Shown here: positions 6,168 to 57,818 of the stretch, piece after piece | How the letters are laid out: every line of letters begins with the position of its first letter | How positions within the stretch are numbered: position 1 is the stretch's first letter | Source: a virus | Direction: 5' to 3' (one strand) | DNA: 64,000 bases | Virus record (IMG/VR): IMGVR_UViG_3300017598_000263 | Coordinates: 7,047-71,046 of that record | The notes under the pieces: model-generated | What the model was told of the DNA's origin: nothing | The model's input: the letters and a program-made list of their open reading frames with translations, nothing else | Database searches by the model: none | Translations under genes and position numbers: made by a program

Positions 6168-6173
6168 AAGATA

Positions 6174-9100
6174 ATGGCTAAATTTTGTTCTATCATAAAC
6201 AACATATTTGATAAGTACATTTATGCAGTTGACCAGATTGCTGAAATACAAAAGCTAAAGGATAAACCTTTACGTTTTAATGTATGGGCAACTGAACAAA
6301 GTCATGTCAAAAATCTATTTAAAAAGAATGGAATAAAAGACCTACCTGCTACTGAAGGTATGGATAATTCTCCACATGTAATAACAAAAATTAAAAATGC
6401 TGTTAGACGTGTAAATGAGTCAGAAGCCTTAGACTCTGCTGAAAAATTTATGGAAGATATTATAGGCAGTGATGACAATATAGAATTATCTATTGCTCTC
6501 CATGAAATTATGGAGTCTGTAAAAGGTGAATCTGATAAAGCTCGTAATCTTGGTATTGATATAGTTGGTATTTCTAAAACATCAGTGCTACCAGTGGTCC
6601 CTATGTCTAGAGTAGCTGCTAGTATTGGTAGAAAAATAGTATTCCAAACAGGCCATAGATTCAGAAGTAACAAGAAAAACAGAGTTACATCTGCAGATAT
6701 TGAAACTCTATATTACACTGCAGGTAAAATGGCATTAGAGATGTTGGCAGAAAAGAAGTACATCAGCATCAACGATACGTTACCTTCTATAAAAGATTAC
6801 TTAACTGAAGCAGAGCTTCGTAAAGAAAGTGCAAATATAAATGCTGTTACCAAAAAAGGTAAAGAAGTTAGAACAGTAGCTTTAAACGAAAAGAAACTTG
6901 GTATAAAAGCTGAAAGCACAGCTAACTACTTTTTAAATAGAACTGAATCAGATTTGGCAGATACTAAACTTGGTGTTATAGCAGATGCATTGAGAGCTGT
7001 ACGAGAAATTACACAGCCATCAACAATTGTTAATCCACACACTGAAGGTAATATTGCATCTGAAGAAGACTTAAGAGATTTGGACGACGACAATGTTAAT
7101 CCAGATCCTATAAGTGATAGTGTGCGTCAAGAACTATACAAAAATCCTTTGTACGTAAATAATTCAATTCACGGACTAATGGGTCTATTGAATCGAGAAG
7201 TCAAAAAGACAGGAGATTCTGGTTCAAAAATCATGAGATCACTGCTAGGAACTAATAGCAAAGGCTTAATTGATTCTTTATTTGGAATCAAAAGATCTGA
7301 TGATTTTTCTAAAGATAAAAAAGAAAGTATTGCTGGACAAAACTTATCCAAAACTACGCCTCTTGATGACCTGGCGGAGAATTATGATGTTATCCAGGGG
7401 GATGGAGCAAATCCAGTAGGATTACATCTTCCTATGAAGCAAGGTCGTAACATACGTTTTTACTATCACAACAGCGTATTAAATCCACATGGGTCCAAGC
7501 ATAGTCGTTATACATTAACGTCTGGCAAGTACACAGTAGATATGAATTCCGCTGACTTTAAAAAACTTGTACACGGTATTTCAGAAGCTATTGGTGACAG
7601 TAAACTGACATTAGATAATTTCGTAGGCAAAACCGATAGTAAATTAAATACTGCATTAAAAGTTTATGAAGATTATAAAGCCTACATCAATAAAGGTAGT
7701 TTAAGCAGTGCAGTAGCTGAAGTAGGTAAATTAGCTAAGATTTTCCCAGGTACTGACTACGTTAGTCTTTTGACCGGGTTACAAGCAGTACAGGACATTC
7801 GTACTACACCTGTCAATGGAAAAATAACTACTGAATTCTTAGGTTCTTCAGATGCTACTGCGTCTGGAGGAACTCAAACATTTATGCAAGCTTTAGGTAC
7901 CAAAGAATCAGTTACAAAATTCTTAAGAAAATTAGGAATGCTTAAGAATGCTGATGGTAACGCTGAAGTAAAAATGAGAGATTTATATGCCATTATGGAA
8001 AATGGTATTAAAGATTTCATTGCTGGAAAAAGTATTGAAGGTTTATCAGGACAAGAACTTAAAGTTGATAAAGATGAAAAATTAACAGGTTCAAGATTGC
8101 TAATGGCTAAAACGGTAGAACTGTTATTTGATAATGGTGACAACCTTAGAAATTTAGCTAAAGATCCAACAATGGTTTTTGTATACAAACAAAGAGAGTT
8201 TGGCGCAGTAGATACAATGGCTCGTAACTTAGCTGATCGTATAGTAGATAATTTAAATAGTAAAAAAGTACGTAGCTACTTATCAACTCTTTTAGACGAT
8301 ACTGAATACGATACTGCTGACATAAAAGATTTAAATAGCAGAACTGGGCTGTATCAAAAAATTGTTACTGCAGTGAAAGACACTGGTCTTACAAGTGACC
8401 TATATAACATTTTGAAAGCTACTGTAGATAACCAATACCTGGAACATTACAATAGTCGTTTGGAGTCTGTATGGAAATTTGTAGAAGATTTAGACTTAGA
8501 TACTAACTTTAAAATTCTTCCTGCTGGAGCAGTATTATCTGGTAAAGAAAATAACATTAATGATCTAAAGCAATTTGGTATGCCAATTTCAAAAGTGCAT
8601 GAAATAGCACATGAAGTCGGGGATACTGGTGATGTGATATTAACTCGTGAACAAAAGTTAGCTAAGTCAGTGGCTGAAGTATCTACTGTGCACAGTATTG
8701 ACTCAGCACAGCTTTACCATGCATTAGATAGAGTAATGAAGAAACCTGAGTTTAAAGGAATGGGAGCTGTAGTTGTACACGATGAAGTACGTGGTCCTGT
8801 ATCTTTAGTGAGAGCTGTAGAAGTAGAGTATAGAAATATTACTAAAGAGATTACTCAGAAATATGATATTCATCAACAGATCTTACTAGCAGTAGCTGCA
8901 TATAATCCTGAAGTAGTTAACGATCCAAAATACAAAGCATTGATGACTGAGATCAATGGACATGTTGAAGAAAAAAATAAAATTATTAGTAATAGTTTTA
9001 ATGAAGACACTGACGCTTTAATTGGTGATAATGCAAAAATTAAAGAATTCGCTGGTGAAGTAGAAGTTGAAACTAAAAAAGAAACAAAGCAGGAAACTAA

Positions 9101-12100
9101 GCCTGAGACTAAAAAAGAAAAGTCAACTCCGGCTAAGAAAGCTTTAAGCATATTAGAAGATCTTGCAGGTGAATCTGAAATAATAGCTAAATTCTTAAAG
9201 TCTGTTAATTCTAGTAAAATAGAAATGGGAGATGATAATAAGTTTTATTCTGGAGATGACCAAATAACTATATCTGGTACCGATATTGGTAGAGGTGCTG
9301 GTGAATCTTTAGATATGTCTAAGCCTGGTGACAGAAAGCTACAGAAAGAACTTATTGAGCATGAGATTACACATGCAAATACAGTAGCTTTAATAGCTAA
9401 AGAATTAAGCAGAGTTGGTCAAAGTGAGACTAAGAGAGAATTACAATACTTTAATAAAGCTATTGAAAATCTAAATAAGCTACTTCCTAATATTATAAAA
9501 AATAGTATAGAAGGTAATTTAAACGATGAGACTTATGATCGTGTTACTTACGTATTAAATCAAAAGAATGAAGCTGATAAATTAGCTGAATTCATAGCTA
9601 TAATGACAACAGAGCCTGAAGTGGCTGCTGATATATATAAAATGCTGTCTAAAGAAAATCCAAATCTACTGGAAAGGATTAAGGCTTTCATTAATAAAGT
9701 TAAAACTGAATACCTGGGTATCAGTGCCAAAGATCTTGATAATGAAATCGACGTAGAAAAGCTATACGGTGCTTTAGTTAATACAGTAGCTACCGGTGAA
9801 ACTCAAAGAGAGCAGCAGTACGCTGAAGCTAAAGTGTGGTTGAGTGCGTATAAAAGAAATTATGGTGCAGGTAATACTGAACAAGTTAAAGCTAATGAAA
9901 AACGTAAAGGTAAACTAAATTACCTTAATTATACTGTAGCCAGTATGATGAATAGCAAACTTGAAAAGAATGGTCAAAGACTTATAGGAAAACTGCATGA
10001 CACAATGAAATCAGTATTTCCTATGTACTTTGATGTTGCTAATAAAATTAATGGTATATACGACAGCTCAGAAGCTCTACAGCAGTTCTATAACACAGTA
10101 ACTGGTGAAGGTTCTGACAAAGTACTTAAAGCAGACTTATTAGCACAAGCTCATAAACTAATGGCTCAACAGACAGCAATTACTAATGACCAGATGGGTA
10201 AATTTAATGAGCTGTTAGGAAAGATGAGTGCTAAAGAAAAAGCTACTATAGGTCGTTTTGTAAATGAAATGCCATTGCATGACTATTTTGTTTTAGCTGA
10301 TGAGTTTAAAACTGAAGAAGCGATAGCGACTGAAGTAACTAAACTAGAAAAGAAAATTAGAAAGCTTAAACAAAAAGAAGCTATTAACGACGTAGATTCT
10401 TTAATTGCCTGGAATGTTCTTCATGATGAAGACACAAAAGGTACAATTTATAATTTAGAAACAAAATATCCTATAAGTGATGATTCTGATTTTGGTATTT
10501 TAGTACGTAAACTATTAGCTTTGAAATCTATACAGGCTATAGAAAAGACTGAGGAAGGTTCTGGTAACTTTGAAAAGCTACTAGAAAATACTGACCTGGT
10601 TAATTTACTTAAAGATACAAGTGTAGCTAATAAACTAAGCCTATTAGAAAATAATGGTACCGGTAGATTAACAGATAGTGGTGTAGCTAATTACTGGAAG
10701 GAACCTTTTGTTACTGAGGTAATTGAACTTAGTGATTTAAAGAGATATGAAAACGGAGAAAATACCGGGTGGAAAGTATTAAGGCATCCTACAACCAATA
10801 GCTTGGGTGTTGTATACAAATATATTATTGATTCTACAAATATTGGTGGTGCATACACAGATGTAAAATTAAAGTCTGCAGATATTACTGTGACCGGTAC
10901 TAAAATGAAATATAAAGAACTAGTTGATGCTCCAGACAAAACTAGAAAACTAAGGTTAACTACAGAAGAGAAAACTGAATTAGGGTTGGTAGATGATTTT
11001 AGTCAGAATTTAGTACGTAGTACATCTCATAGTATGGCTATTCAAGATTCACAAATATTACGTGATGGTATTTTAAGAAAAGAAACCAGAATGGTTATAG
11101 GAAAGAATGTTACTGAATTAGTAGATACTATTAAAGCAGAAAATGTTCATAGTCCCTGGTTCGTACAGTTTGAAGGTGGTGTTTCCTGGGAAGATATTGA
11201 TCCTAGTAGACCTGATTTAGATGAAGCTACTAGAAAACAATACAAGATGATACGAGCTAAGTATAAGCCTGTAGGTAATAGAGCGTCTAATGTAAAAGGT
11301 TTTGATAAAGAAATACATTTAGTTAAAAAAGATATTGCTCATTGGTTGATGGGTGGTAGTTCTCAATCATTATTCAGCAATCCAAAATACAAATGGGCTG
11401 CACGAGTAGTGAAAGATTTAATTGCAGCATCTAAGATTAGTATGGTTGTACTAAATCCATTGAAAATTATAAACGATAATATATCTAATATTGCTTACAT
11501 TGGTGTAATGGGAGCATCTCCATTATTTATAGCTAAAAACTATAAGGATATTACTCGTGATTTCCAAGAGTATTCAGATCTACAACGTCAAATTGTACAG
11601 TTAAAAGTACAGATGGTTGCTAGACCAAATAGTAAAAAGTTAGAAAAGAAAGTTGAAGCATTACGTAAACAAGTAGATAAAAATCCTTTAGCTGGATTAC
11701 AGGATAGAGGTTTCATAAACTCTCTTGGTTCAGATTTGGTAGCTAAAAATGCAGATACACTTTCTGGTTTACAGGCAGATATACATTCAGCATTAGAATA
11801 CCTATTGGTAAATAAAAAAGGTAATAAACGATATATTTCTCACTTTATTGCACAATTACATAGCATAGGCGGTAATGGTGAAGATTTCTTAAAATACTTA
11901 GGAAGTTTAGCCAAGAAAGCTGGCAAAGATGGGAAAGGAGCTGCTAAAGAGCTAGATCAAGTTTATGATCGATTAAAAGAGATTCGTACTGATGAAGATA
12001 TTGTGAATTATGTATCTCAATATACAACAAGTCCTGGTGCTGAAACTGTTCGTATTGGATCTTCTATAACTGATTTAACAGATGTGTTAGCTAAAGAAAC

Positions 12101-12467
12101 TTTGTATCGTCATTTAATGGAAAATGAAAATATGAGTTCTGAAGATGCACGTATAAAAGTTCTTGATTCATTCCCGGATTACAAAGAGAACATGCCTATT
12201 ACTATAAAAGAATTAAGTAATAACGGTATCATTATGTTCCCATCGTTCTGGTTAAGAATTCAGAAAGTTATATACCATACAGTTAAAGACAAGCCAATTA
12301 ACTTAGCTACTGAGATGTTGCTTCAAGATATGGTTGGTAGTAATTTGAATACAATTATGGGAGCAAATGTAGTTAACAAGTACAATGAGTTTGGTGGAAT
12401 ATTCCATACACCATTTGAACCTATGAGTCTTGCTACGTTTGTACCTGTAAACTTATTTAAGTGGTAG
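6174..12467 (+). CDS. Virion-encapsidated single-subunit RNA polymerase with zincin-like HExxH domain and C-terminal domain
   Basis: T7-superfamily motifs: A SSDATASGG (about 7845-7871), B RNLAKDPTMVFVY (about 8148-8186), HSIDS, C VVHDE (about 8772-8786). HEITH at about 9360. Only Cys is residue 5. Confidence 0.85.
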   Translation: MAKFCSIINNIFDKYIYAVDQIAEIQKLKDKPLRFNVWATEQSHVKNLFKKNGIKDLPATEGMDNSPHVITKIKNAVRRVNESEALDSAEKFMEDIIGSDDNIELSIALHEIMESVKGESDKARNLGIDIVGISKTSVLPVVPMSRVAASIGRKIVFQTGHRFRSNKKNRVTSADIETLYYTAGKMALEMLAEKKYISINDTLPSIKDYLTEAELRKESANINAVTKKGKEVRTVALNEKKLGIKAESTANYFLNRTESDLADTKLGVIADALRAVREITQPSTIVNPHTEGNIASEEDLRDLDDDNVNPDPISDSVRQELYKNPLYVNNSIHGLMGLLNREVKKTGDSGSKIMRSLLGTNSKGLIDSLFGIKRSDDFSKDKKESIAGQNLSKTTPLDDLAENYDVIQGDGANPVGLHLPMKQGRNIRFYYHNSVLNPHGSKHSRYTLTSGKYTVDMNSADFKKLVHGISEAIGDSKLTLDNFVGKTDSKLNTALKVYEDYKAYINKGSLSSAVAEVGKLAKIFPGTDYVSLLTGLQAVQDIRTTPVNGKITTEFLGSSDATASGGTQTFMQALGTKESVTKFLRKLGMLKNADGNAEVKMRDLYAIMENGIKDFIAGKSIEGLSGQELKVDKDEKLTGSRLLMAKTVELLFDNGDNLRNLAKDPTMVFVYKQREFGAVDTMARNLADRIVDNLNSKKVRSYLSTLLDDTEYDTADIKDLNSRTGLYQKIVTAVKDTGLTSDLYNILKATVDNQYLEHYNSRLESVWKFVEDLDLDTNFKILPAGAVLSGKENNINDLKQFGMPISKVHEIAHEVGDTGDVILTREQKLAKSVAEVSTVHSIDSAQLYHALDRVMKKPEFKGMGAVVVHDEVRGPVSLVRAVEVEYRNITKEITQKYDIHQQILLAVAAYNPEVVNDPKYKALMTEINGHVEEKNKIISNSFNEDTDALIGDNAKIKEFAGEVEVETKKETKQETKPETKKEKSTPAKKALSILEDLAGESEIIAKFLKSVNSSKIEMGDDNKFYSGDDQITISGTDIGRGAGESLDMSKPGDRKLQKELIEHEITHANTVALIAKELSRVGQSETKRELQYFNKAIENLNKLLPNIIKNSIEGNLNDETYDRVTYVLNQKNEADKLAEFIAIMTTEPEVAADIYKMLSKENPNLLERIKAFINKVKTEYLGISAKDLDNEIDVEKLYGALVNTVATGETQREQQYAEAKVWLSAYKRNYGAGNTEQVKANEKRKGKLNYLNYTVASMMNSKLEKNGQRLIGKLHDTMKSVFPMYFDVANKINGIYDSSEALQQFYNTVTGEGSDKVLKADLLAQAHKLMAQQTAITNDQMGKFNELLGKMSAKEKATIGRFVNEMPLHDYFVLADEFKTEEAIATEVTKLEKKIRKLKQKEAINDVDSLIAWNVLHDEDTKGTIYNLETKYPISDDSDFGILVRKLLALKSIQAIEKTEEGSGNFEKLLENTDLVNLLKDTSVANKLSLLENNGTGRLTDSGVANYWKEPFVTEVIELSDLKRYENGENTGWKVLRHPTTNSLGVVYKYIIDSTNIGGAYTDVKLKSADITVTGTKMKYKELVDAPDKTRKLRLTTEEKTELGLVDDFSQNLVRSTSHSMAIQDSQILRDGILRKETRMVIGKNVTELVDTIKAENVHSPWFVQFEGGVSWEDIDPSRPDLDEATRKQYKMIRAKYKPVGNRASNVKGFDKEIHLVKKDIAHWLMGGSSQSLFSNPKYKWAARVVKDLIAASKISMVVLNPLKIINDNISNIAYIGVMGASPLFIAKNYKDITRDFQEYSDLQRQIVQLKVQMVARPNSKKLEKKVEALRKQVDKNPLAGLQDRGFINSLGSDLVAKNADTLSGLQADIHSALEYLLVNKKGNKRYISHFIAQLHSIGGNGEDFLKYLGSLAKKAGKDGKGAAKELDQVYDRLKEIRTDEDIVNYVSQYTTSPGAETVRIGSSITDLTDVLAKETLYRHLMENENMSSEDARIKVLDSFPDYKENMPITIKELSNNGIIMFPSFWLRIQKVIYHTVKDKPINLATEMLLQDMVGSNLNTIMGANVVNKYNEFGGIFHTPFEPMSLATFVPVNLFKW

Positions 12468-47189: not shown

Positions 47190-47903
47190 ATGCCCAAAGA
47201 ATTAACACTTGAATTAGTACAGTCACAACTAAAGCCAAATCAACGGCTAACAATAAGTGAAGATACAGTAGCTGAAATACAAAAATTAGCTGAAGATCCT
47301 GACTATGGTGAAGAATTTCTTGATTGCTACTTAGATCACCTAAATATCTTTAAAGAAAATCCACGTAGATCTCATAACCAATATTTGAGTGCTATTAAAT
47401 TTTTTAGCCTGGTTGAATCAGATAATAGTCTGACTGACGCTTATATAAAAACATTCCCAGAAAGATTTAATGCTCGGTGTAAAACAAAATTTGGAGAACC
47501 TCCTGCAGACAAATCTATCATGCGAGGTGAGGCCAGTAGATATAACGCTTCAGTGATGGTTTCTGAAATACGCAGGGTAGCTGGAGTACCTGTACAACTT
47601 GTCCATAGACATTTATTGCATGAAGCAATATTGGCACAAGCTGATTTAATGCGTAATGCAAGAAGTGAAATGGTACGTCAGAAAGCTGGTCAAACATTAA
47701 TACAAGAATTGAAACCTGCTGAAGACCAGGTACTTAAAGTGGAAGTTGATGATGGTACAACATCTGTTATCAGTGAATTACACAAAGCAGCAGAAGCATT
47801 AGCTGCAGCTGAACATCGAACTGTTATGGCTGGTACTCCGTTGAAAGATGTAGCAGAATCAAAAGTAATAGAAGCAGAAGTGATAGAAGATGACGACGAC
47901 TAA
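47190..47903 (+). CDS. N4 gp69-like protein (putative terminase small subunit)
   Basis: Immediately upstream of TerL; AYIKTFPERF and ARSEMVRQKA motifs. Confidence 0.7.
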   Translation: MPKELTLELVQSQLKPNQRLTISEDTVAEIQKLAEDPDYGEEFLDCYLDHLNIFKENPRRSHNQYLSAIKFFSLVESDNSLTDAYIKTFPERFNARCKTKFGEPPADKSIMRGEASRYNASVMVSEIRRVAGVPVQLVHRHLLHEAILAQADLMRNARSEMVRQKAGQTLIQELKPAEDQVLKVEVDDGTTSVISELHKAAEALAAAEHRTVMAGTPLKDVAESKVIEAEVIEDDDD

Positions 47904-49566
47904 TAAAAAAATGGATCTAGATGAAAGGCTTAATCACGTAGATTATAGCTACTTTGGTGACAAATATGTTCCTACTACATTTGCCTTCAAATTTATCGCA
48001 TTCATAAAATTAGTTAACGGGGCTGAAGGAGAAGAGAATAAATCTCCAATAATTCACTATGACATGTTGGATCAAGTAGTAAAAGCTGCAGAAGAATCCA
48101 AAGGTGACAATAAACGCTTTATTCAGAATCTATATGTATCATTTCGTGGATCAGCAAAAACTACTGCATTACATGAGTATATGTTTTTGTATATTGCTGT
48201 TTATGGTGAGGTACCTGGGTTTGGCCGAGTAGATGTAGCTATGTATATAAGTGACACCATTGATAACGGTGTTAAATCTATGAGAACTAACCTGGAATAC
48301 AGATGGAATAATAGTGAATTCCTGCAGAAGTATGTTCCTAAAATGCTTATGACATCTACCGATAGACTAGAAGGTAAAGGAAAAGCAGAAACAAAATTTA
48401 CAGATGTAAGATGGGAATTTGTTAACCTTGATGGTAAAAAATTCTGTGTACGAGGATTTGGTGCAAGTACAGGTGTTCGTGGATTTAAAGAATACGGAAA
48501 AAGACCAAATTGGTTAGGCTTAGACGATTTGATGTCTGATAAAAATGCAGAATCTGCAACAATTGTTAGAGACATCAAACACATTATTTACAAAGCTGCT
48601 CGTCAGGCAATGCATCCCAAAAAACGTATGACTATTTGGACCGGTACACCATTCAATAAATCTGATCCATTATACGAAGCCGCTGGAAGTAGATCTTGGA
48701 ATACCAGAGTGTATCCTATATGTGAAAAATTCCCATGTGAGAAAAAAGATTTCGTTGGTGCCTGGGAAGATCGATTCGATTATGATTTTGTGAAACATGA
48801 GTATGATAGTCTTTTAGAAGATGGTGAAATATCTTCATTCAACCAGGAGCTTATGTTGAGAATTACAAGTGACGATGATCGTCTGGTACAAGATACTGAC
48901 ATAGTTTGGTATTCAAGAGATAAAGTTATTCAGAACCGCAGTAGATATAATTTCTACATAACTACGGATTTTGCTACTTCAGATAAAGCTAAAGCTGATT
49001 ACAGTGTCATATCTGTATGGGCTTATACAAATAATAAAGATTGGCTGCTTGTTGATGGTGTATGTAGACGACAATTAATGGATGCTAATATAAATGATCT
49101 ATTCCGTTTTGTTTCTATATATAAACCTTTAAGTGTTGGTATAGAAATTAATGGTCAACAAGGCGGATTTATACAATGGCTGAAAGACCAAATGATCACC
49201 AGAAACGTATTCTTTAACCTGGCTGGTAAAGGTAAAACTGAAGGTATTCGCAGAACAGGTAGCAAAATTGAGCATTTTAAACTATTTGTGCCTACAATTA
49301 AGGCTAAGAAGATGTGGCTACCTGAAGAACTTAAGGAAAAACCATTAGTTGCAGAATTTACTGAAGAGTTGAGATTTGCTACAGAAGAAGGATTTAAATC
49401 GAAACATGACGACGTTTGTGATACAGCATCTATGCTATTAGAGATACCAGCATTTGCTCCTAGCCAGGAAGCTACACCTGAATACGTAGAAAATGAAGCA
49501 GGTACATTCGGTTTTATGCATGAAGAAGAAGATAACGATAGCTATAATGGCAGTACAATTTTTTAA
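47890..49566 (+). CDS. terL: Terminase large subunit (N4 gp68-like)
   Basis: FRGSAKTT, GVRG, LDDL, GTPF, TTDFATS and HDDVCD motifs. Confidence 0.92.
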   Translation: MTTTNKKMDLDERLNHVDYSYFGDKYVPTTFAFKFIAFIKLVNGAEGEENKSPIIHYDMLDQVVKAAEESKGDNKRFIQNLYVSFRGSAKTTALHEYMFLYIAVYGEVPGFGRVDVAMYISDTIDNGVKSMRTNLEYRWNNSEFLQKYVPKMLMTSTDRLEGKGKAETKFTDVRWEFVNLDGKKFCVRGFGASTGVRGFKEYGKRPNWLGLDDLMSDKNAESATIVRDIKHIIYKAARQAMHPKKRMTIWTGTPFNKSDPLYEAAGSRSWNTRVYPICEKFPCEKKDFVGAWEDRFDYDFVKHEYDSLLEDGEISSFNQELMLRITSDDDRLVQDTDIVWYSRDKVIQNRSRYNFYITTDFATSDKAKADYSVISVWAYTNNKDWLLVDGVCRRQLMDANINDLFRFVSIYKPLSVGIEINGQQGGFIQWLKDQMITRNVFFNLAGKGKTEGIRRTGSKIEHFKLFVPTIKAKKMWLPEELKEKPLVAEFTEELRFATEEGFKSKHDDVCDTASMLLEIPAFAPSQEATPEYVENEAGTFGFMHEEEDNDSYNGSTIF

Positions 49567-49606: not shown

Positions 49607-50227
49607 ATGATTGTCAGTGAAGCAATTGATTTACTTCAAAAAGGTGAGTTAAAACAGCTCAACATAAAAGACGATACTGCTGCGATTATAGGATTTATAA
49701 ATTTAGGTATCCTAGAATTGTATAAACGTTTTCCTTTGTGGGAAGCTGAAGCAACTATTACACAAGCTACTGGTGTGTCTACTTACACACTAGAAGAAGC
49801 AGATGCTAATGTAGATATTGACCTTAGTGATCACAGCTTGATAAAAATTCAGAAAGTATATGATGAAGACGATCTTCCATACGTTATAAACAACGAAAAA
49901 GATGAAGATAGTATAAGTACTCCAAAATACAATCAGATAAAAGTAGCTACTATAGTTCCTGATTATGAGATGAATGTTATTTACCGGGCTTCTCCTATAT
50001 TCCTTACAACAGTACGACAAACCATTCCATTACCATCACAATTCTATGAAGCACTATTTCTGTACGTAGCATTCAAAGGTCAATTATCTGTAAAATCTGG
50101 GATAAAAGAGGAAAACAATACTCACTATATCCGGTTTGAAGCTAGTTGTGACAGAATTAAAATGGAAGGACTTGGTGTAGAAAATGACATGGAATCTTCT
50201 AAATTTGAACAAAGAGGATTTGTATAA
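49607..50227 (+). CDS. Head-tail adaptor (N4 gp67-like)
   Basis: INLGILELYKRF...LP..F.EAL..YVA...KFEQRGFV; follows TerL. Confidence 0.7.
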   Translation: MIVSEAIDLLQKGELKQLNIKDDTAAIIGFINLGILELYKRFPLWEAEATITQATGVSTYTLEEADANVDIDLSDHSLIKIQKVYDEDDLPYVINNEKDEDSISTPKYNQIKVATIVPDYEMNVIYRASPIFLTTVRQTIPLPSQFYEALFLYVAFKGQLSVKSGIKEENNTHYIRFEASCDRIKMEGLGVENDMESSKFEQRGFV

Positions 50228-50589
50228 TGGCTAAAGAACTACCAGCTATAGCAGGTGAATGTGACTTAATAACAAATGCTGCTACTGATAGAACAATACA
50301 ATTTACTCAAAAGATAAATGATGTTGGTATAGATTTTACACACGCTGACTACACAGAATTTACTTTTGTAGTTAAAGCAACTGCTACCTCTGGTACAGCA
50401 ATACTTACAAAAACACTAACTGATAGTGGTGGTATTGAAGTAGATGCACTTGGAAATATTAACGTAACTTTCACTGATGAAGATTTAGATTTAGATGATG
50501 TTAGTTATGAATACAGCTTAACGTATGTACTGAGAGGATTAGTTATTCCTTTAATGATCGGTGCATTTATACTTAAGGCTAGAGCATGA
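50227..50589 (+). CDS. Ig-like tail-fibre attachment protein
   Basis: 120 aa, beta-rich, precedes the fibre gene. Confidence 0.5.
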   Translation: MAKELPAIAGECDLITNAATDRTIQFTQKINDVGIDFTHADYTEFTFVVKATATSGTAILTKTLTDSGGIEVDALGNINVTFTDEDLDLDDVSYEYSLTYVLRGLVIPLMIGAFILKARA

Positions 50590-52844
50590 GTGTAACTGTA
50601 GAAATTATTGAATCCACCGTAGATGTTACTATTGGAAATTCAACAACTTCAGTAGTTGTAGCTAATGCTACATCAGCAGTAAGTGTCAGTAGTGTTTCTT
50701 CATATGACTCCAGTATTTTAGGTGATCTATCTGCAGCAGAAGCTAATGCTGAAGCACAAGCTGGATACGCTGAAGAATGGGCATCTTCTGATAGTGATGT
50801 TTCAGTAGAAGCTGGTGGTGGAGTTGGAATTAATTCAGCCAAAACAGAAGCTGAAGCAGCAGCTGCAGATGCCGTTTTAACAGCCGCAGATGTTGTGTCT
50901 ACCGGATTAGATGTAGTTGCTACAAATGCTGACGTAGTTTCTACTAACGCTGACGTTGTACTGACAAATGCTGATGTAGTTGCTACCGGTAATGACCTTA
51001 CAGCAACCAACCAAGACACAGTAGATACAGCAGCTGATGTGGTATTAACAAATGCTGATGCTGTATCAACAGGAAATGATGTTACTTCCTGTAGTAATTC
51101 AGCTTCTGCAGCAACAACAGCCCAAGGTTTAGCAGAAGATGCTCAAGGATTTGCCGAAGACGCACAGACAGCAGCTGAAGCAGCTCAAGCAGCAGCAGAA
51201 GACGCAGCAGATTCTACAGGTACATCTGTTTCAAGTGTTCTAATTGGTACAGGTGCTAAATCATTTGAAACCCAAGCAGATAAATATTGGGTAACTGGGC
51301 ATTCATTAAAAATAGTAAGTGATGCTGACCCAACCGTAGATTATATGATCTGTGTAGTTACTAGTTATTCTGGTACTACTTTAAATGTAACAGTATCAGA
51401 TGCATATGGTTCTGGGACTCATACTGATTGGACAATATCGATGGGGGCATCTGATCACAATCATGATACTGATTATTTAGCCCTTTCTGGTGGTACTTTA
51501 ACTGGTGATTTAGACGTACCTAATGTTTCAGTTTCTGGTGTCGTTAATGCAGCAGGTGGTGTTGATGTCGGGGACCCTGGGTTTGAAGCATCTGGTATTA
51601 ATATTAATGGTGTTACATACACTACTGGATTACGCGTAAATGATATTGGTGGTTCTAACGCTGCCCAAATGGTTATACACCGTCATAGCACAACATTACA
51701 GCCATTATTACTTGGTGCAAGATCGAATACTAATGATAATACACATGCAGCAGTGACAACTGGACAAAGTTTATTTACAACTTTTGCATCAGGATGGACT
51801 GCCAGTCATTATGATTTATTTGGTTCTTCTGACTTTAAAGTAGGTACAGGTACTGTAAGTGCAACTTCAAGCCCAGGTAAATGGGTATTAAGTTTGACCC
51901 CTGATGGGAGTAATTTACCCACAGCATGTATAACTGTTGACTCAGATAAATCAGCAGTATTTGCTGGAGATATTAGTGGTACTAACTTATCTGGTACAAA
52001 TACTGGTGACCAGGATAAAGCTAATATTGATGCATTAGGAATAGAAGCTTCCTCATTATCTGGATTAAACTCTACTGTAGCTGATTTAAATGTGTTTACT
52101 GAACTAGCTCCGTATGCTTCAGCTACCCCAGATACGTACATAAATGTTACTGCAGGTTCAGTACTTTCAGCAGGTTCTGGTCAAATAACTACTGTAGCAG
52201 AAGGTACTCAGGTTGCTGGCAAAACAGGTTTTGTAGCGGATACCTACAGTGCTTTAAATGTTATATACATGGATACTGATGGGGATTTGTATCTATTCCC
52301 TGGTGCAAGTACAACTGGCACACCAGTAATACCTAGAATACCCTACGGAACTATAGCTATATGCGCCATTCTTGAAACTGGCCCTAGTGATACTATAGTT
52401 GAAACAGCTGATATAACAGATTTGAGAAAGTACAATTTCTCATCTCTTATGGAACGACAAATATTAACTACTAATATTGAAAACTTAGATGCAACTGCTT
52501 CAGAATTAAACGTAAAAGAGTACATAATAGATGTAACATTAGGTACTTCTAAAACAGAGTATGTAAAAATTCTTTGGCCCTGTACAGTTACTAGAATTGA
52601 TAGCGTTATAGACGGTGCTCTTTCAGGTACAGACGAAACACTAACATTTAAAGATGATAGTAATAACGATATGGACTCAGTTATGACAATAGCTGTAGCC
52701 TCATCTACTGGTGGTACAGATGATACAGTTTTGCCATCTACAAATAACACTTTTTCTGCTAATGACATACTTAAAATAGCTATTGGTGGTGAAAATAGTA
52801 ACGCAGTAAAAGCACGAATTACTATAAGAATGGATCTTGGATAG
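50586..52844 (+). CDS. Tail fibre protein
   Basis: Heptad xADVVxT repeats (about 50860-51085), HNHD..YL.LSGGTLTG, NLSGTNTGDQ. Confidence 0.75.
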   Translation: MSVTVEIIESTVDVTIGNSTTSVVVANATSAVSVSSVSSYDSSILGDLSAAEANAEAQAGYAEEWASSDSDVSVEAGGGVGINSAKTEAEAAAADAVLTAADVVSTGLDVVATNADVVSTNADVVLTNADVVATGNDLTATNQDTVDTAADVVLTNADAVSTGNDVTSCSNSASAATTAQGLAEDAQGFAEDAQTAAEAAQAAAEDAADSTGTSVSSVLIGTGAKSFETQADKYWVTGHSLKIVSDADPTVDYMICVVTSYSGTTLNVTVSDAYGSGTHTDWTISMGASDHNHDTDYLALSGGTLTGDLDVPNVSVSGVVNAAGGVDVGDPGFEASGININGVTYTTGLRVNDIGGSNAAQMVIHRHSTTLQPLLLGARSNTNDNTHAAVTTGQSLFTTFASGWTASHYDLFGSSDFKVGTGTVSATSSPGKWVLSLTPDGSNLPTACITVDSDKSAVFAGDISGTNLSGTNTGDQDKANIDALGIEASSLSGLNSTVADLNVFTELAPYASATPDTYINVTAGSVLSAGSGQITTVAEGTQVAGKTGFVADTYSALNVIYMDTDGDLYLFPGASTTGTPVIPRIPYGTIAICAILETGPSDTIVETADITDLRKYNFSSLMERQILTTNIENLDATASELNVKEYIIDVTLGTSKTEYVKILWPCTVTRIDSVIDGALSGTDETLTFKDDSNNDMDSVMTIAVASSTGGTDDTVLPSTNNTFSANDILKIAIGGENSNAVKARITIRMDLG

Positions 52845-52909
52845 GAATAAAATTGTTTATATACTAATAACACTATAGACTTAACACAAATAAATAATTG
52901 AGGTGATGT

Positions 52910-53122
52910 ATGGCTGGTAAAGGTGATGGTATATATGTTTGGGCAGGTGCTGGTACTGACGGTGGTGATGAACATAAAAAAACTGGTGAAAAATCTCTTG
53001 GTATACCGATAGGCACTATTGGATTTAATAATGATGGTGCTTCTACAGCTAATGTATATATATGGACCGGTGTAATTTGGGCTGATACTACTCAAACAGT
53101 TGCTGGATTTTTTGGAGTATAA
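52910..53122 (+). CDS. Small Gly-rich structural protein
   Basis: 70 aa, GAGGTG RBS. Confidence 0.6.
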   Translation: MAGKGDGIYVWAGAGTDGGDEHKKTGEKSLGIPIGTIGFNNDGASTANVYIWTGVIWADTTQTVAGFFGV

Positions 53123-53125
53123 GAT

Positions 53126-54889
53126 ATGCCCTCTGCTGCATTAGCTCATTTGCTGAAAAGAAAAGGTATCATAGTTCCTACAGGAGCTAGTGCAATAGAT
53201 TTCTATGCTCCTTTAATAAACTCATTAATACCTAATAAAGGTATTGGTTCATATACAAATACTCGTAATGATGCAGATGCTACTTTTGTTGACTATGAAG
53301 ATAAAATAATTCAAGTAGCTGCCAATGAAGCAAGATTTCCTGGATTGCGTAGAGTATCTAACCATATACCTGACAGTTCTGATGTATCACCAACTAATAC
53401 TGCATTCAGTTGGTTATTCTCTATTGATGGTGGAGCAGTAGCAGCACCTGATAGTTCTTTAACAGCTAGACGTATTACACCTCACACAATCGGTATACTT
53501 GGTTGGACATGTAGTAGCTTACATCCTATTGGATCTACTGCATTAAATAGTCTATGGGTAAGAACTAATATGTCTTCTCTTGGATTTATTAATGGTCATA
53601 ATGGAGGAATAGCAGATAATATAACTGTGACTCCTAATGTATGGCAAAGAATAACAGCTGATTACGCTATTGTAACTGCTACAGGTGCTTTTGGTTTATC
53701 TATGTCAGGTCTAAATCCTGCTTCTGACTGGATTGAAGTATGGCATCCACAAGCTGAAACTATATCAGGTGCTATAAATGATAATCCTAGTGAGTATGTT
53801 GATACTAATATAGACCATGGTACAGGTACTAATCACTCTAAGTATTTTACAGTTACTAATCCAAATGAAGTAACAGATAATATTATTACTGAAACAGTAT
53901 CATCAACAGCTATTACAGGTGCTCCAGGCTATCTAACAGAAGCCAATAGTGAGAATATGGTTCTTCAATCAGAAGACTTTACTACTACTTGGGTAGATAC
54001 TTGGGGTAGTGGTGTTACGGTCACTGCTGATGATACTACTGCACCGAACGGTGAAACTACTGCAGATAAAATTGCTAGAGATGGATCTTCTGGAGATGCC
54101 GTTAATCAAATTATAAGCTTAGCTACAGACACAAAATATTTTTTAAGCCTTTATGTAAAGAATGTCGATGCTAACCAGAGCAGATTGCATCTATGGGATA
54201 ATACTGCAGCTGCTTCAGCAGGATATGTACAAATAAACTGGTCCGGTACAACTCCAACATTACCTGGCGGTTCTCCTGCTGGAGCAAGGATTGTTGCTTT
54301 AATAGATGACTGGTATAGAGTAGAAGTTCCTTTTACTACTACTAATACTGGCGATCACAGATTCTTGTTTATGCCTCAGTCTACAGGTGGAGCAGGTTGG
54401 AATGGTTCTAGTGTATATGTATGGGGTGCACAACTAGAAACTGAAGCAGTTTCATCTTACATACCTACTACAACAGCTTCTGTTGTTAGAGCCAGAGATT
54501 ACACAGGATACGATTTTGCTAATCTTAATGTAAACGAAGGTAGTATGACATTAACAGTTACACCTCACGTAGATGTAACTGACTTTAGTGGTAATTGCAG
54601 AGTTATAAAAGGTGATAGTGCTGAATATGAAGCAATTATAGGACTTAGTAATACTACAGGTAAATATTTTATAGACTCTGATGATACTCTTAATGCTTCA
54701 TCAACAGTAGATGCTACTCCGCATATAACAGTATCCATAGCAGTAACTTGGTCAGTTACAGCTGGTACAATAAGTATTAGTGTAGATGGTGAAACACCTG
54801 TTGAAGTTTCAGGATTCATCGGTTTTGACTACACTGAATTTAATATTGGTGATGGTCTATTCAGTGGAACTGTTAGAGGAATCGATTAG
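53126..54889 (+). CDS. Tail/head-spike protein with carbohydrate-binding and C-terminal LamG-like domains
   Basis: N....SEDF, WYR, VWGAQLE...SSYIPTT..V.RA.D motifs; ends GLFSGTVRGID. Confidence 0.7.
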   Translation: MPSAALAHLLKRKGIIVPTGASAIDFYAPLINSLIPNKGIGSYTNTRNDADATFVDYEDKIIQVAANEARFPGLRRVSNHIPDSSDVSPTNTAFSWLFSIDGGAVAAPDSSLTARRITPHTIGILGWTCSSLHPIGSTALNSLWVRTNMSSLGFINGHNGGIADNITVTPNVWQRITADYAIVTATGAFGLSMSGLNPASDWIEVWHPQAETISGAINDNPSEYVDTNIDHGTGTNHSKYFTVTNPNEVTDNIITETVSSTAITGAPGYLTEANSENMVLQSEDFTTTWVDTWGSGVTVTADDTTAPNGETTADKIARDGSSGDAVNQIISLATDTKYFLSLYVKNVDANQSRLHLWDNTAAASAGYVQINWSGTTPTLPGGSPAGARIVALIDDWYRVEVPFTTTNTGDHRFLFMPQSTGGAGWNGSSVYVWGAQLETEAVSSYIPTTTASVVRARDYTGYDFANLNVNEGSMTLTVTPHVDVTDFSGNCRVIKGDSAEYEAIIGLSNTTGKYFIDSDDTLNASSTVDATPHITVSIAVTWSVTAGTISISVDGETPVEVSGFIGFDYTEFNIGDGLFSGTVRGID

Positions 54890-55905
54890 TGAAAATATAC
54901 AATAAAACATTCTCCGAGGATTCGTTAAGAACTTTATCAGGATGGGATGGTACTCCAGATCCTGCACAATTTTGTACATACTTTCCAAGTCTAATACACT
55001 GTGATGATTTTAATGGATTAACTACAGGTGAACTGGATGATGAAACTGCTTATGACAGTTTTTACACTAACTTAAGTGGAGCAGAAGTTAAAGGCTCATT
55101 ATGGAAAGAAGACACAGGTGGTTATTCTAATAGTACTTATGCTGACACAGGATGTCTTAAGTACTTATTAAACTCGGTAGATAGAAATGAATATCCAATG
55201 GAAACTATGCACCCACACCCAGGGTTAGATAGTACAGAAGACGTACTTTACTTTGGTTGTATGATTTATATATCAGCAGACATACTGTCTAAAATTTCTG
55301 GTCCTGATGGAGGTTTGCTTGGAGCTGGTTCTAAGCTAATGGCATTTCCTGCTTTAAATGGACAAGAAGCACGACCTATTGTATTTATGCAAACTATTCC
55401 TGACACAAGAGATGAACATCCAAATAGTGTTGTAACAACTAATCCAACAGATACTACACCAGTTTATTGGATACCAATGCTATCTCCCACAGCATCTCAA
55501 ACTAATGCCAGGGACGAAGAGAACAATTTTGAAAGAAGTGGTGCTGTTGGTTATTACAATGGTGGAGATTTGCATGGATTTACGTTTAATGACTATGTAG
55601 ATCAATGGATCTATGTAGAAATGCGAGTAGCTAAGACTGTTGCTGCTAACTCTAACCATGAGCTATATATATACACACAAGATGGTGTATATCAAGGTGC
55701 TCATTTCGCTACTTATGGTGCAGATACACCAATGATTGAATGCGCTAGTGAAACAATATCAGCATCTCACGGAAATTGGGATAGGCCGAGTTTCATGTAT
55801 TGGATAGAGTATCATAGAGGTGCTACTGCAGAAACTTATACAAAACTTGATAATGTAAGAATATCAACTACGTTTATGGGACCACCTGAAGGATTTGTAG
55901 TATGA
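54889..55905 (+). CDS. Beta-sandwich (lectin/lyase-like) putative receptor-binding protein
   Basis: GTG start overlapping the upstream stop with AGAGGA RBS; DQWIYVEMRV and LDNVRIST motifs. Confidence 0.55.
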   Translation: MKIYNKTFSEDSLRTLSGWDGTPDPAQFCTYFPSLIHCDDFNGLTTGELDDETAYDSFYTNLSGAEVKGSLWKEDTGGYSNSTYADTGCLKYLLNSVDRNEYPMETMHPHPGLDSTEDVLYFGCMIYISADILSKISGPDGGLLGAGSKLMAFPALNGQEARPIVFMQTIPDTRDEHPNSVVTTNPTDTTPVYWIPMLSPTASQTNARDEENNFERSGAVGYYNGGDLHGFTFNDYVDQWIYVEMRVAKTVAANSNHELYIYTQDGVYQGAHFATYGADTPMIECASETISASHGNWDRPSFMYWIEYHRGATAETYTKLDNVRISTTFMGPPEGFVV

Positions 55906-56390
55906 GTATATATAGTGCAATAGTAGCAGTTCATCCAGATGTTGAATCAGAATTCGTAGATGAGAATGCTTTAAATGAAATGCCTGTTGAAATGAGACAA
56001 GCAGTTGAAGGTAGAAATAAAGCAGGATTAACCGGGCTAGCAGTACATAGTATTACTTACCCGTGTTATTTAGTTTGGGGTTCTATTGAAGGTCTAGGAG
56101 CTGCTCAACTAAGATGGGGTGATAACCTCATAGTTATGGATACCTGGACAAAAAATGGTACAAGAGCTGGTACTTACTACGAAAACGAAATTGATACTTC
56201 AGATCCAATGAATCCTATTGTAAATAGGGTACTGGTAGGTGAGCCGGTAAGAGAACGTCATCCACAATTAATGAATATTCTTCCTGATGTTATTCTATAT
56301 GATGCCGATGGTAATGAATTTGGAAGAAGTAGACCAACAGACTTTTCTACATTACCTACTATATTAGGTCATGGAATAAGAGAAGTATGA
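55902..56390 (+). CDS. Hypothetical tail-associated protein
   Basis: 162 aa, ATGA-coupled on both sides. Confidence 0.55.
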   Translation: MSIYSAIVAVHPDVESEFVDENALNEMPVEMRQAVEGRNKAGLTGLAVHSITYPCYLVWGSIEGLGAAQLRWGDNLIVMDTWTKNGTRAGTYYENEIDTSDPMNPIVNRVLVGEPVRERHPQLMNILPDVILYDADGNEFGRSRPTDFSTLPTILGHGIREV

Positions 56391-57070
56391 AAGTTTATAA
56401 TAAAGCTTTGGAAGGAACTTTTTTACAGTATGCTTCTGTTGTTGGAGGTAGACCAACATCCGGGGCTACTATAATACATGATACTTTTACTGATGATGAT
56501 GCAACAATTCTAGACGGAAGAAAACCAGACATAATAAATTTACTAAATTCTGCCTGGATAAAAGCAAATACTTACGATATGGAAATTAGTGGAAATGAGT
56601 TAGTGTACATTCCTGCGGCAGAAACAGCTGAATATAAAGATAATGACCATATTATTGACACTACGCTAACTGCTTTAACAATTGAAGTTGATGTAAGAGT
56701 TAGCAATATGGATGAAATTATTTACCATAGTGTTGTTATTAGGTATATCGATAATTTAAACTCAACAGTTGTTCAATGGCAGTCAGCTGCTGGTATTGCT
56801 CATAGTTTACAAATCAAAGAACAAGTAGATGCTGAAGGATCTAGTGATATAGGTGGAGAAGGTGGAGGTCACACATTTGCTAATACAGATAATCTCGGTG
56901 AAAAGCACACTATGAGAATAGTAGATGATGGAAATACAATTACAGCTACGTTGTTAGGAGAAACAGTAACAGCAAATTCATCAAACCATACCGAATCTAC
57001 ATCAGTAGGAATAAGAACAAGTGAGCGTCCTGGTCAAGCCTGGGATAACTTTATAGTTAGTAAAACATAA
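56387..57070 (+). CDS. Concanavalin-like beta-sandwich tail-associated protein
   Basis: DTFT...HTMRIVDDGNTITA...VGIR...WDNFIV. Confidence 0.55.
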   Translation: MKVYNKALEGTFLQYASVVGGRPTSGATIIHDTFTDDDATILDGRKPDIINLLNSAWIKANTYDMEISGNELVYIPAAETAEYKDNDHIIDTTLTALTIEVDVRVSNMDEIIYHSVVIRYIDNLNSTVVQWQSAAGIAHSLQIKEQVDAEGSSDIGGEGGGHTFANTDNLGEKHTMRIVDDGNTITATLLGETVTANSSNHTESTSVGIRTSERPGQAWDNFIVSKT

Positions 57071-57079
57071 GGAAAATAC

Positions 57080-57349
57080 ATGAACAGCTTCATAACGTGG
57101 ATATTCAGAATACTTATATCAGTAGACCAGTTTTTCAATGTTTTATTAGCTCCAGTATGGCCCTTAGTATTCTGGGGATCAAAGGGTTGGGGTGCTCCAG
57201 ACGAAACCATTAGCTCAGTATTAGGAAAAAACTATAAGCCATGTAGAGCCTGTAGATTTATGTGCAGAATAATATCTAGATTTGACTTTGCTTCTTCAAA
57301 GCATTGTAGGGATAATATCGAAAAAGACGAAGGCATAAAACAAAAATAA
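57080..57349 (+). CDS. Conserved small phage protein
   Basis: DQ..N....G.PDETISS..G....C....HC motif. Confidence 0.65.
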   Translation: MNSFITWIFRILISVDQFFNVLLAPVWPLVFWGSKGWGAPDETISSVLGKNYKPCRACRFMCRIISRFDFASSKHCRDNIEKDEGIKQK

Positions 57350-57371
57350 ACTACATACAGAGATTTCTATC

Positions 57372-57818
57372 ATGTCAGATGAAAAAGTGTACACAGAAAT
57401 TGAGTTCAAGCAGGCTATAATTGAGAATAAATTAGTTAGTATTGAAGCAAACACTGCAGCTCATATAAAAGAAGAAGGAGAGCAATGGCAGAAGCAAAAT
57501 GCAAAGCTTGAAAACGTAGAGGATATGGTACGAAAATTTCCTGAACAGATGGCTACTTGTAGGAATAATATGGAAAAAGACTTACGTGGAGAATTCATAT
57601 CTAGAACTGAAGTCAAACAAATGGAAGAACGATTAGACTTGAGAATTGATGAAGTACCAAAAGTAGTTGGTGCTCAAATCCAAACAATGACAACTAATTT
57701 AAAAAACAATCAAGAAGCAACAATAAGTGCTGCCCTTAAACGTATTTTAGTTTATATAGGAATTGGCTTCGGTGCTGCAGTTTCAGTTCTTTCATTAGTA
57801 ATGAAATTAACAGGATAG
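57372..57818 (+). CDS. Coiled-coil protein with C-terminal TM helix (lysis-region membrane protein)
   Basis: 148 aa with one C-terminal TM segment. Confidence 0.55.
   Translation: MSDEKVYTEIEFKQAIIENKLVSIEANTAAHIKEEGEQWQKQNAKLENVEDMVRKFPEQMATCRNNMEKDLRGEFISRTEVKQMEERLDLRIDEVPKVVGAQIQTMTTNLKNNQEATISAALKRILVYIGIGFGAAVSVLSLVMKLTG

Follow-up and report, generated by a model that had tools for sequence, protein, structure and literature searches.

In a 64,000-nucleotide (nt) stretch of viral DNA, hereafter the window (bases 7047-71046 of the 71,046-base-pair (bp) JGI/IMG virus record IMGVR_UViG_3300017598_000263), the reading frame of a tail-fibre gene closes immediately ahead of the final β-strand of the C-terminal LamG-like domain that it encodes, and the adjacent gene begins with a segment homologous to the strand that is missing. 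We term the fibre gene open reading frame 1 (ORF1) and its downstream neighbour ORF2, and give all positions in window coordinates unless otherwise indicated. The explanation that we favour, with somewhat better than even confidence, is a selected split in which a stop codon, a Shine-Dalgarno (SD) sequence and a start codon separate the two parts of the gene, and in which ORF2 docks non-covalently on ORF1 by strand completion. The elements on which this proposal turns are listed below.

53126-54889, + strand: ORF1, a 587-residue tail-fibre protein
ORF1 residues ~1-260: conserved N-terminal region
ORF1 residues ~265-441: middle domain resembling carbohydrate-binding modules (CBM) of the CBM4/16 type
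54449-54886, + strand: truncated LamG/ConA-like domain of ORF1 (residues 442-587), ending at about position 142 of a 160-position profile
54875-54880, + strand: SD sequence AGAGGA of ORF2, spelled by Arg-Gly codons of ORF1 and spaced 8 nt from the GTG start
54887-54892, + strand: junction 1, TAGTGA, read directly as two consecutive stops in the ORF1 frame (TAG, TGA) overlapping the ORF2 GTG (54889-91)
54889-54939, + strand: plug 1, ORF2 residues 1-17, (M/V)KIYNKTFSEDSLRTLS; in the ORF1 family, the homologous segment forms the closing strand and helix
54889-55905, + strand: ORF2, 338 residues: the plug, then a linker reaching about residue 30, then a ConA-like jelly roll at about 33-338

The terminal domain of the fibre protein is truncated

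ORF1 belongs to a family of tail proteins. It matches phrog_5939 ('tail protein') with E 2.4e-26, residues 267-579 falling on positions 408-732 of an 801-position profile, so that this match likewise stops short of the profile end. Among 8,000 candidates scored, 127 homologues were recovered at E<=0.001, the nearest with 31-32% identity. A previous sequence-only reading of the stretch had proposed that the protein ends at ...GLFSGTVRGID and thereby lacks the last strand of a LamG-like fold. The coordinates and sequence of this C-terminus are as it described them, and alignment with 20 near-full-length homologues bears out the missing strand: all 20 extend 17-25 residues beyond the end of ORF1, with the consensus 'G.IRNV-RIYkkaLtdaql..LTT'. 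We built the 160-position profile of the C-terminal domain from these 20 homologues and ran it on the proteins fetched by then. Besides ORF1 it matched 105 proteins, of which 103 reach position 155 or beyond; P0062 is matched to position 154, and P0071 at positions 2-29 only, with the protein ending 21 residues on. Most of the complete-domain proteins (95 of 103) terminate within 4 residues of the domain end, and the other 8 have longer tails of 7-124 residues, exceeding 100 only in P0077 and P0096. The local alignment of ORF1 to the profile ends at position 128, with 11 residues remaining. The truncation of ORF1 is real.

No Pfam family was found in ORF1 at E<=1, the Laminin_G_3 profile (PF13385) included, and the label 'LamG-like' therefore rests on fold matches and on homologues, precomputed PF13385 assignments being present in 6 of the 120 that were listed (P0023, P0050, P0052, P0086, P0088 and P0120). 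The AlphaFold2 model of ORF1 has a mean predicted local distance difference test (pLDDT) value of 59.9, and its CBM4/16-like middle domain is confidently modelled. This middle domain is related by sequence to the RcGTA head spike fibre 6tb9 (E 2e-44) and also to Pa193 gp46 / E217 gp45, with structural Z values of 21.1 and 17.7 (Pa193 gp46 / E217 gp45). The model of residues 442-587 forms a two-sheet jelly roll superposable on LG, pentraxin and CBM66-type domains. Fold matches reaching residue 587 cover 126-144 residues with a root-mean-square deviation of 2.6-3.2 Å and Z of about 12, and include CBM66 4b1m (12.8), AbnA domain 4 (11.9-12.2), laminin LG4-5 (11.9) and pentraxins (11.9-12.0). The C-terminal strand that should close this sandwich does not lie in the same polypeptide: profile positions 143-159 correspond to ORF2 residues 1-17. 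Two further comparisons are hints only. The ORF1 model superposes on AbnA domain 4 to chain residue 829 and the complete jelly roll of ORF2 to residue 845, and, with its tail included, the family profile can be aligned until no more than 5 residues of the AbnA chain are left (E 5e-4).

The closing strand heads the next gene

The earlier reading had also noted that the next gene starts with MKIYNKTFS behind an AGAGGA of its own. This holds, and the start can be specified as the GTG at 54889, which lies in the -1 frame and shares its G with the TAG stop, the 3' codons of ORF1 being GGA ATC GAT TAG TGA. A six-frame scan of the genome for K[IVL]YN[KR] found just three occurrences, two of them at the starts of ORF2 and of ORF5, a gene further downstream that is considered below. 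When ORF1 and ORF2 were joined in a script, the product aligned with profile positions 2-159, ORF2 residues 1-17 falling on positions 143-159, and the score rose from 51.8 to 58.1 bits. As a control, the first 40 residues of each of the 194 ORFs of the genome with at least 50 residues were appended to ORF1 in the same way. With the 20-sequence profile, the median gain was -0.5 bits and the 95th percentile +1.2, and ORF2 ranked first of 194 with +6.3; with a broader profile of 103 domains it again ranked first of 194 (+4.6 bits).

The ribosome-binding site of ORF2 is of the kind that this phage employs. An AGAGGA with the same 8-nt spacing also precedes the gene at 50227, and most structural genes of the phage have sites of the AGGA/GAGG type. 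The Arg-Gly codons that form the SD sequence stand where the family has Arg/Lys-Asn. Among 15,378 internal -1-frame codons in ORFs of at least 150 residues, 212 are start codons, of which 12 have an SD core and one a strong SD sequence. Only five codons separate the last -1-frame stop (TAG at 54874-76) from the ORF1 stop, so that the chance of finding an SD sequence with a start codon there is about 0.4%, or about 1% if the valine of the motif is allowed to be GTG in any case.

ORF2 carries a lyase-like jelly roll

The 17-residue N-terminal segment of ORF2 (the tag) lies outside the protein's own fold. In the model of ORF2 (pLDDT 74.6; predicted template modelling score, pTM, 0.82), residues 1-25 have pLDDT values below 50, the jelly roll starts at about residue 33, and fold matches begin at residues 28-33. 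An exhaustive search recovered 17 other proteins at E<=0.001, mostly bacterial secreted proteins, and the tag is in none of them. The best five align from ORF2 residue 17-60 onwards to their own C-terminal parts (e.g. 285-583 of 584 residues) and begin with signal- or lipoprotein-like sequence or with other domains, never with the tag.

ORF2 has no Pfam or PHROG match, and residues 33-338 share their fold with the jelly rolls of polysaccharide lyases and glycanases (PL14, PL20, PL36, GH131; TtX122). The Z values are 17.0 for TtX122A, 16.4 for Cip1, 16.0 for the PL20 glucuronan lyase and 15.8 for GH131, and 15.3 and 14.2 for the alginate lyases of PL14 and PL36, with Foldseek E of 1e-6 to 4e-6 and 9-12% identity. 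Neurotoxin binding domains among the matches have only the generic lectin jelly roll in common with it. Because its fold resembles these lyases and glycanases, the modelled body marks ORF2 as a candidate glycan-degrading or glycan-binding tip. Considered in its own right, the body (window 54985-55902) forms together with P0122-P0138 an unnamed family that matches nothing in Pfam or PHROG and has an invariant C-terminal signature, 'YTQDG ... FMGPPxGF'. Its members are mostly bacterial and secreted or lipoprotein-like, and some have Calx-beta-like or Asp-rich repeats at the N-terminus.

A second junction interrupts the same motif

Downstream of ORF2, the motif recurs at the boundary of two further genes.

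55902-56390, + strand: ORF4, a 162-residue orphan whose last 8 residues are LGHGIREV
56387-56390, + strand: junction 2, ATGA, in which the ORF4 stop overlaps the ORF5 start; same position in the K[IV]YNK motif as junction 1, -1 frame
56387-56437, + strand: plug-like N-terminus of ORF5, MKVYNKALEGTFLQYAS
56387-57070, + strand: ORF5, 227 residues, with the plug-like N-terminus followed by a candidate ConA-like/DUF1080-like lectin-type domain at about 24-227

Both junctions cut the same motif at the same place, with overlapping stop and start codons (TAGTGA, ATGA) and a shift to the -1 frame, and at the DNA level they are alike in the coding motif only. ORF5 starts with MKVYNKALE, as had been read from the letters. 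What that reading overlooked is that the LGHGIREV of ORF4 corresponds to the segment preceding the closing strand in the LamG family motif; the last 8 residues of ORF4 and residues 2-14 of ORF5 together give an ungapped match to profile positions 136-156, which at 0.2 bits is not significant. Beyond these 8 residues ORF4 has no similarity to the LamG profile, and it has neither a Pfam or PHROG family nor a phage match. Its Atlas model is poor (pLDDT 0.39) and not sandwich-like, with weak matches to ACT-like and other folds at template modelling (TM) scores below 0.4.

Near and longer sequence searches and tblastn against phages found no homologue of ORF5, and it has no Pfam match at E<=1. Its Atlas model (pTM 0.79) matches clusters of the DUF1080/3-keto-disaccharide-hydrolase type (PF06439) from residues 23-26 with TM scores of 0.65-0.70, which we take as a lead only. 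Because these matches begin at residues 23-26, the first ~23 residues of ORF5 also appear to be an appendage. The sole notable BLASTP segment between ORF2 and ORF5 aligns residues 1-23 of both (9 of 23 identical, E 0.18), and over residues 2-13 they rank second among 18,721 ORF pairs of the genome, the top scores being 41, 25, 24 and 21; the pair is thus extreme without being an outlier. The most alike N-termini genome-wide (score 41, against 25 for ORF2 and ORF5) belong to two + strand ORFs upstream of the window, at window coordinates -6336 and -3564, which may be paralogues. The assertion that the shared N-termini stand before unlike domains is sustained: the bodies of ORF2 and ORF5 are unrelated in sequence and are modelled as lyase-like and DUF1080-like, respectively.

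A proposed plug-and-socket model for the fibre tip

Under the explanation that we favour, ORF1 would be anchored through its conserved N-terminal region, and its distal LamG/ConA-like sandwich would be made without the closing β-strand and the short helix that follows it. ORF2 would be translated separately from its own AGAGGA and GTG, and since this start overlaps the double stop of ORF1, expression of the two is probably coupled, at a ratio of roughly 1:1. The 17-residue tag of ORF2 would then insert into the incomplete sandwich of ORF1 as a plug into a socket, leaving the candidate glycan-degrading tip hanging non-covalently at the end of the fibre. ORF5, with its candidate lectin-type ConA-like domain, probably uses the same kind of plug, the socket being either ORF1, for which it would be an alternative tip, or ORF4.

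The sequence-only reading had both proteins completing the same spike. The part that concerns ORF2 gains partial support from its rank as the best completer and from its own SD sequence; the part that concerns ORF5 is weakened by the poorer fit of its tag and by the ORF4 end with which that tag pairs in the motif. We accordingly regard ORF2 and ORF5 as alternative tips of a single socket as a possible arrangement, though a doubtful one. A wider generalization, which we offer tentatively and think unlikely in its full extent, would treat the strand-less LamG domain as a general socket and K[IV]YNK[AT][LF] as a portable plug. Each fibre would receive a lyase-like or a lectin-like tip, and a virion might bear a mixture, so that two glycan specificities would be had with neither DNA inversion nor gene duplication; the stop-SD-start cassette would be a recurrent, selected route to tip exchange by recombination at a conserved 50-nt joint.

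A complete related N4-like contig of 76,976 bp (G001) offers a view of the state without the split. Its fibre, of the same family, has the full closing strand (...FTDAEVVAL, then stop), and small membrane-protein genes lie directly 3' of it, with no tip genes. Because this related fibre is complete without them, the tip genes of the present phage look like an addition at the closing strand. Members in which a further domain is fused behind the closing strand are rare, at 2 of 103 in the family. Given this rarity, the simplest path would be either the addition of a tip domain behind the closing strand followed by a cut before the strand, or the capture of tip cassettes by recombination within the strand-coding sequence. 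The G001 fibre gene itself (L082 1498-3585, - strand; G001:C1:46579-50163) has its frame broken at least twice, with the CBM and LamG parts in separate frames (2 TAA inside the match), and a 904-residue frame ends in hydrophobic sequence that looks out of frame; these breaks perhaps reflect assembly quality.

Weighing the alternatives

Several observations count against the split as a selected strand-completion device. The case is built on the internal evidence of a single uncultured genome as assembled, in which ORF1, ORF2, ORF4 and ORF5 are singleton clusters, with no close relative in the collections searched to show that the split is conserved; among the 106 family members examined it is unique to ORF1. 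The C-terminal sandwich of ORF1 is modelled with middling confidence (pLDDT just 45-78), and the joint between ORF1 and ORF2 has a two-residue insertion relative to the profile. Taken alone, the 17-residue motif is not significant: a tail-only profile (25 residues) places the ORF2 frame fourth among 2,478 six-frame peptides (E 1.5), and the best local hhalign match, of ORF2 1-17 on alignment columns 599-615, has a probability below 1%. As the motif is too short for significance, the evidence is positional, in that the best-fitting N-terminus sits exactly at the domain break. The ORF5 tag adds just 0.6 bits as a completer of ORF1 with the 20-sequence profile (not significant) and ranks fifth of 194 with the 103-sequence profile (+2.9 bits), a modest fit to the family. 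A complex prediction of ORF1 436-587 with ORF4 and ORF5, with ORF5 as the partner and run without controls, scored 0.01 against a mark of 0.32, which speaks neither for nor against binding.

The most direct competitor is a single fibre gene of 925 codons, comprising anchor, CBM, LamG and lyase-like tip, in which a small indel somewhere from 54877 to 54889 interrupted the reading frame through assembly or sequencing error or recent mutation, the SD sequence and GTG being coincidental. The two frames do differ by -1, and the joined product reads the family profile end to end; fused forms that extend ~115-125 residues past the domain exist in two of the 103 complete-domain homologues (P0077, P0096), and the fibre gene of a related contig has frame breaks. 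Such an indel would, however, have had to fall exactly at a start codon with an SD core, a combination found at only 12 of 15,378 internal -1-frame codons (with a strong SD at one), and here the start has the spacing that this phage uses and two stops. In addition, 1.5 kb downstream the motif is cut at the same position by a second junction of like geometry. Elsewhere, the terminase can be aligned without a break along 99% of its length. The rarity of the start signals, the Arg-Gly codons that form the SD sequence, the double stop, the second junction and the intact terminase together make an unselected indel the less likely reading, and we judge it unlikely. The earlier note had listed a frameshift fusion as an alternative; fusion of ORF1 and ORF2 in a fraction of products by a programmed -1 frameshift, a hop or transcriptional slippage is very improbable. 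Programmed frameshifts are known in phage tail genes, and ORF2 does lie in the -1 frame and overlap the ORF1 stop. Neither an X XXY YYZ heptamer nor a homopolymer occurs, however, in the 13-nt permissive stretch at 54877-54889 (AGAGGAATCGATTAG); a TAG at 54874-76 closes the ORF2 frame upstream, the A4 run comes after the stop, no slippery site precedes junction 2 either (GGAATAAGAGAAGTATGA), and an SD sequence with a start codon is the simpler route.

The tags might also be the scar of a module exchange, in which ORF2 and ORF5 were captured by recombination in the closing-strand sequence. They would then be vestigial, the tips free or attached elsewhere, and ORF1 would work with an incomplete or differently closed domain. 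The hypervariability of the fibre module fits this view: none of 78 terminase-related loci has a relative of ORF2, ORF4 or ORF5, and the closest cultured relative differs. ORF4, which ends in a motif fragment yet has no LamG similarity, resembles a carried-over junction, and the ORF2 body has bacterial relatives. Against this view, both tags retain the residues that are consensus in the family (K, I/V, Y, K, A/T and L/F, followed by L) even though they fall outside the folds of their own proteins. In the family, only ORF1 and P0071 are without the closing strand, which suggests that it is needed, and the way in which stop and start codons overlap exactly at each of the two junctions suggests that co-expression is tuned. 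On this balance we find a pure scar distinctly unlikely. A different arrangement would have two split pairs, with ORF2 inserting into ORF1 and ORF5 into ORF4; it is compatible with the proposed docking of ORF2 on ORF1 and competes only with the alternative tips. Because ORF4 lies directly upstream and ends with the preceding piece of the motif, ORF5 may indeed pair with it, or else be a recombination relic. The uninterrupted copy of the closing motif across ORF4 and ORF5 (positions 136-156), their ATGA overlap and the poorer fit of the ORF5 tag to the ORF1 family point to such a second pair, against which stand the lack of LamG profile similarity in ORF4 beyond 8 residues, the 0.2-bit motif match and the poor, non-sandwich model of ORF4. 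We consider two pairs improbable, too.

Two further possibilities were rejected. Switching by an invertible segment or shufflon finds no basis in window 52800-57400, where long direct or inverted repeats are absent and the best candidates are one of 38 nt (71%) and one of 30 nt (70%). Reassignment of the stop codon fails because the TAG is followed by an in-frame TGA and the next frame differs.

Genomic context of the locus

The terminase (47890-49566) is 68% identical to those of the Alteromonas phages vB_AmeP_PT11-V19 and R22Y and ~50% identical to those of many N4-like phages, its one-piece alignment being with cultured relatives. Judged by these terminase relatives, the host would be Alteromonas-like. 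The gene order runs from the terminase through a gp67-like protein and the fibre genes to the portal (59081) and capsid (62655). By these sequence relationships the phage is an uncultured marine N4-like (Schitoviridae-type) virus, which places the split locus in its variable host-recognition module. The first 30 bases of the record (1-30) are repeated at 70925-70954, ~122 bases short of its end, which fits a terminal repeat or the overlap of a circular assembly.

The 78 related viral contigs have the terminase (44-72% identity) and the next gene in common with this phage, and ORF1 has weak matches in two of them only (L026 and L074). In the closest cultured relative, other genes occupy the position of the fibre locus. 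The related-locus search of viral contigs returned no relatives of ORF1, ORF2 or ORF4, and for ORF5 a sole locus (L079) in which a chance 'MKVYNKAL' starts an unrelated helical protein. No match was found by tblastn of ORF2, ORF4 and ORF5 against 50,697 phage records, by blastn of the locus, or, with a gapped DNA pattern spanning junction 1, among metagenome contigs, a collection that may lack the window's own records. The four proteins (ORF1, ORF2, ORF4 and ORF5) are recorded on 2-3 contigs.

Upstream of ORF1, a 752-residue neighbour (window 50586-52844) contains an Ala/Val/Thr-rich repeat region, 'NADVV.T', at about residues 90-175. This region is the sole part in common with the fibre genes of related contigs, the remainder being unique; its identity is 45-76% over 40-110 residues in most loci and ~29% over 191 residues in two. 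On the 3' side of the tip genes lie an 89-residue Cys-rich membrane-type protein (window 57080-57349; phrog_3342, E 4.6e-17) and a 148-residue coiled-coil protein with a C-terminal membrane helix (window 57372-57818; phrog_7090, E 2.5e-8), both of families of unknown function. Elsewhere, two ORFs of 994 and 2097 residues at window 3183-12467 are a candidate split of a large virion gene, a putative virion RNA polymerase.

Implications

If the plug-and-socket arrangement is true, it would bear on several problems: 1) It would constitute a structural rule by which some phages fit a constant fibre with exchangeable tips, be they receptor-binding proteins or depolymerases: a lectin-type domain is cut ahead of its final strand, and every tip gene starts with that strand. 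2) It would explain how recombination can exchange tip cassettes at a joint that is conserved and very short. 3) Partners would become predictable from sequence alone. 4) It would supply a small natural tag-socket pair for hanging cargo on laboratory phage fibres. For annotation, the case implies that such 'frameshifted' fibre genes are not to be merged or discarded automatically.

Comparison with known systems

One comparison is with the intact members of the fibre family itself (P0003 to P0105, the RcapMu and Nonlabens phage tail proteins, RcGTA 6tb9 and Pa193 gp46 / E217 gp45), which share the N-terminal region, the middle domain and most of the last domain with ORF1. Whereas they end with the closing strand, here this strand has moved to the next gene, where a 310-residue body is added to it.

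Donor-strand complementation is known from chaperone-usher pili, in which Ig (immunoglobulin)-like pilins form head-to-tail polymers and depend on a chaperone and an usher. The likeness is one of principle only, a fold without one strand receiving it from the terminal extension of another polypeptide. The domain considered here is a lectin-type jelly roll in a proposed 1:1 heteromer rather than an Ig-like fold completed by strand G, and no chaperone or usher family was found among its neighbours with Pfam and PHROG. Strand exchange between the subunits of contractile sheaths (PMC13266070) likewise has only the principle in common with our case. The literature searches made gave no description of a LamG domain split between fibre genes, a result that concerns those searches and makes no claim about print as a whole; the paper on the Alteromonas schitovirus A5 makes no mention of LamG.

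Similar in genetic layout are the branched systems formed by receptor-binding proteins (RBPs) of the Klebsiella phages KP32, K11 and KP34, of K1-5 and of the N4-like G7C (gp66/gp63.1; PMC13352976). They resemble the present locus in their adjacent genes, in their occurrence in the N4-like group and in attaining two specificities without DNA rearrangement (PMC13352976). The short N-terminal peptide that unites otherwise unrelated secondary RBPs has its counterpart here in ORF2 and ORF5. The T4gp10-like (XD2/XD3) branching domain was not detected by Pfam in ORF1 or in the 752-residue neighbour, for which no dedicated structural comparison was made. The socket proposed here is a LamG-like domain that is incomplete, of which the peptide would be a piece; the interaction is validated in the branched systems and is proposed here.

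A mechanistic parallel is the baseplate tripod BppU-BppA of the Lactococcus phage Tuc2009, a solved structure in which, according to Legrand et al. (2016, mBio, PMC4742702), an accessory carbohydrate-binding protein is attached by β-sheet completion and the composite domain looks like an ordinary fold made from one chain. In that tripod, the structural protein donates a hairpin of 25 residues at its C-terminus, which is accepted by a small titin/Ig-like domain in the accessory protein (PMC4742702). In our case, by contrast, the accessory protein would donate its N-terminal strand and helix and the LamG/ConA-like sandwich of the fibre would accept them, and both pieces clearly descend from one continuous domain. 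Attachment by strand completion is a principle already known from Tuc2009, of which the LamG domain split between fibre genes would be a variant.

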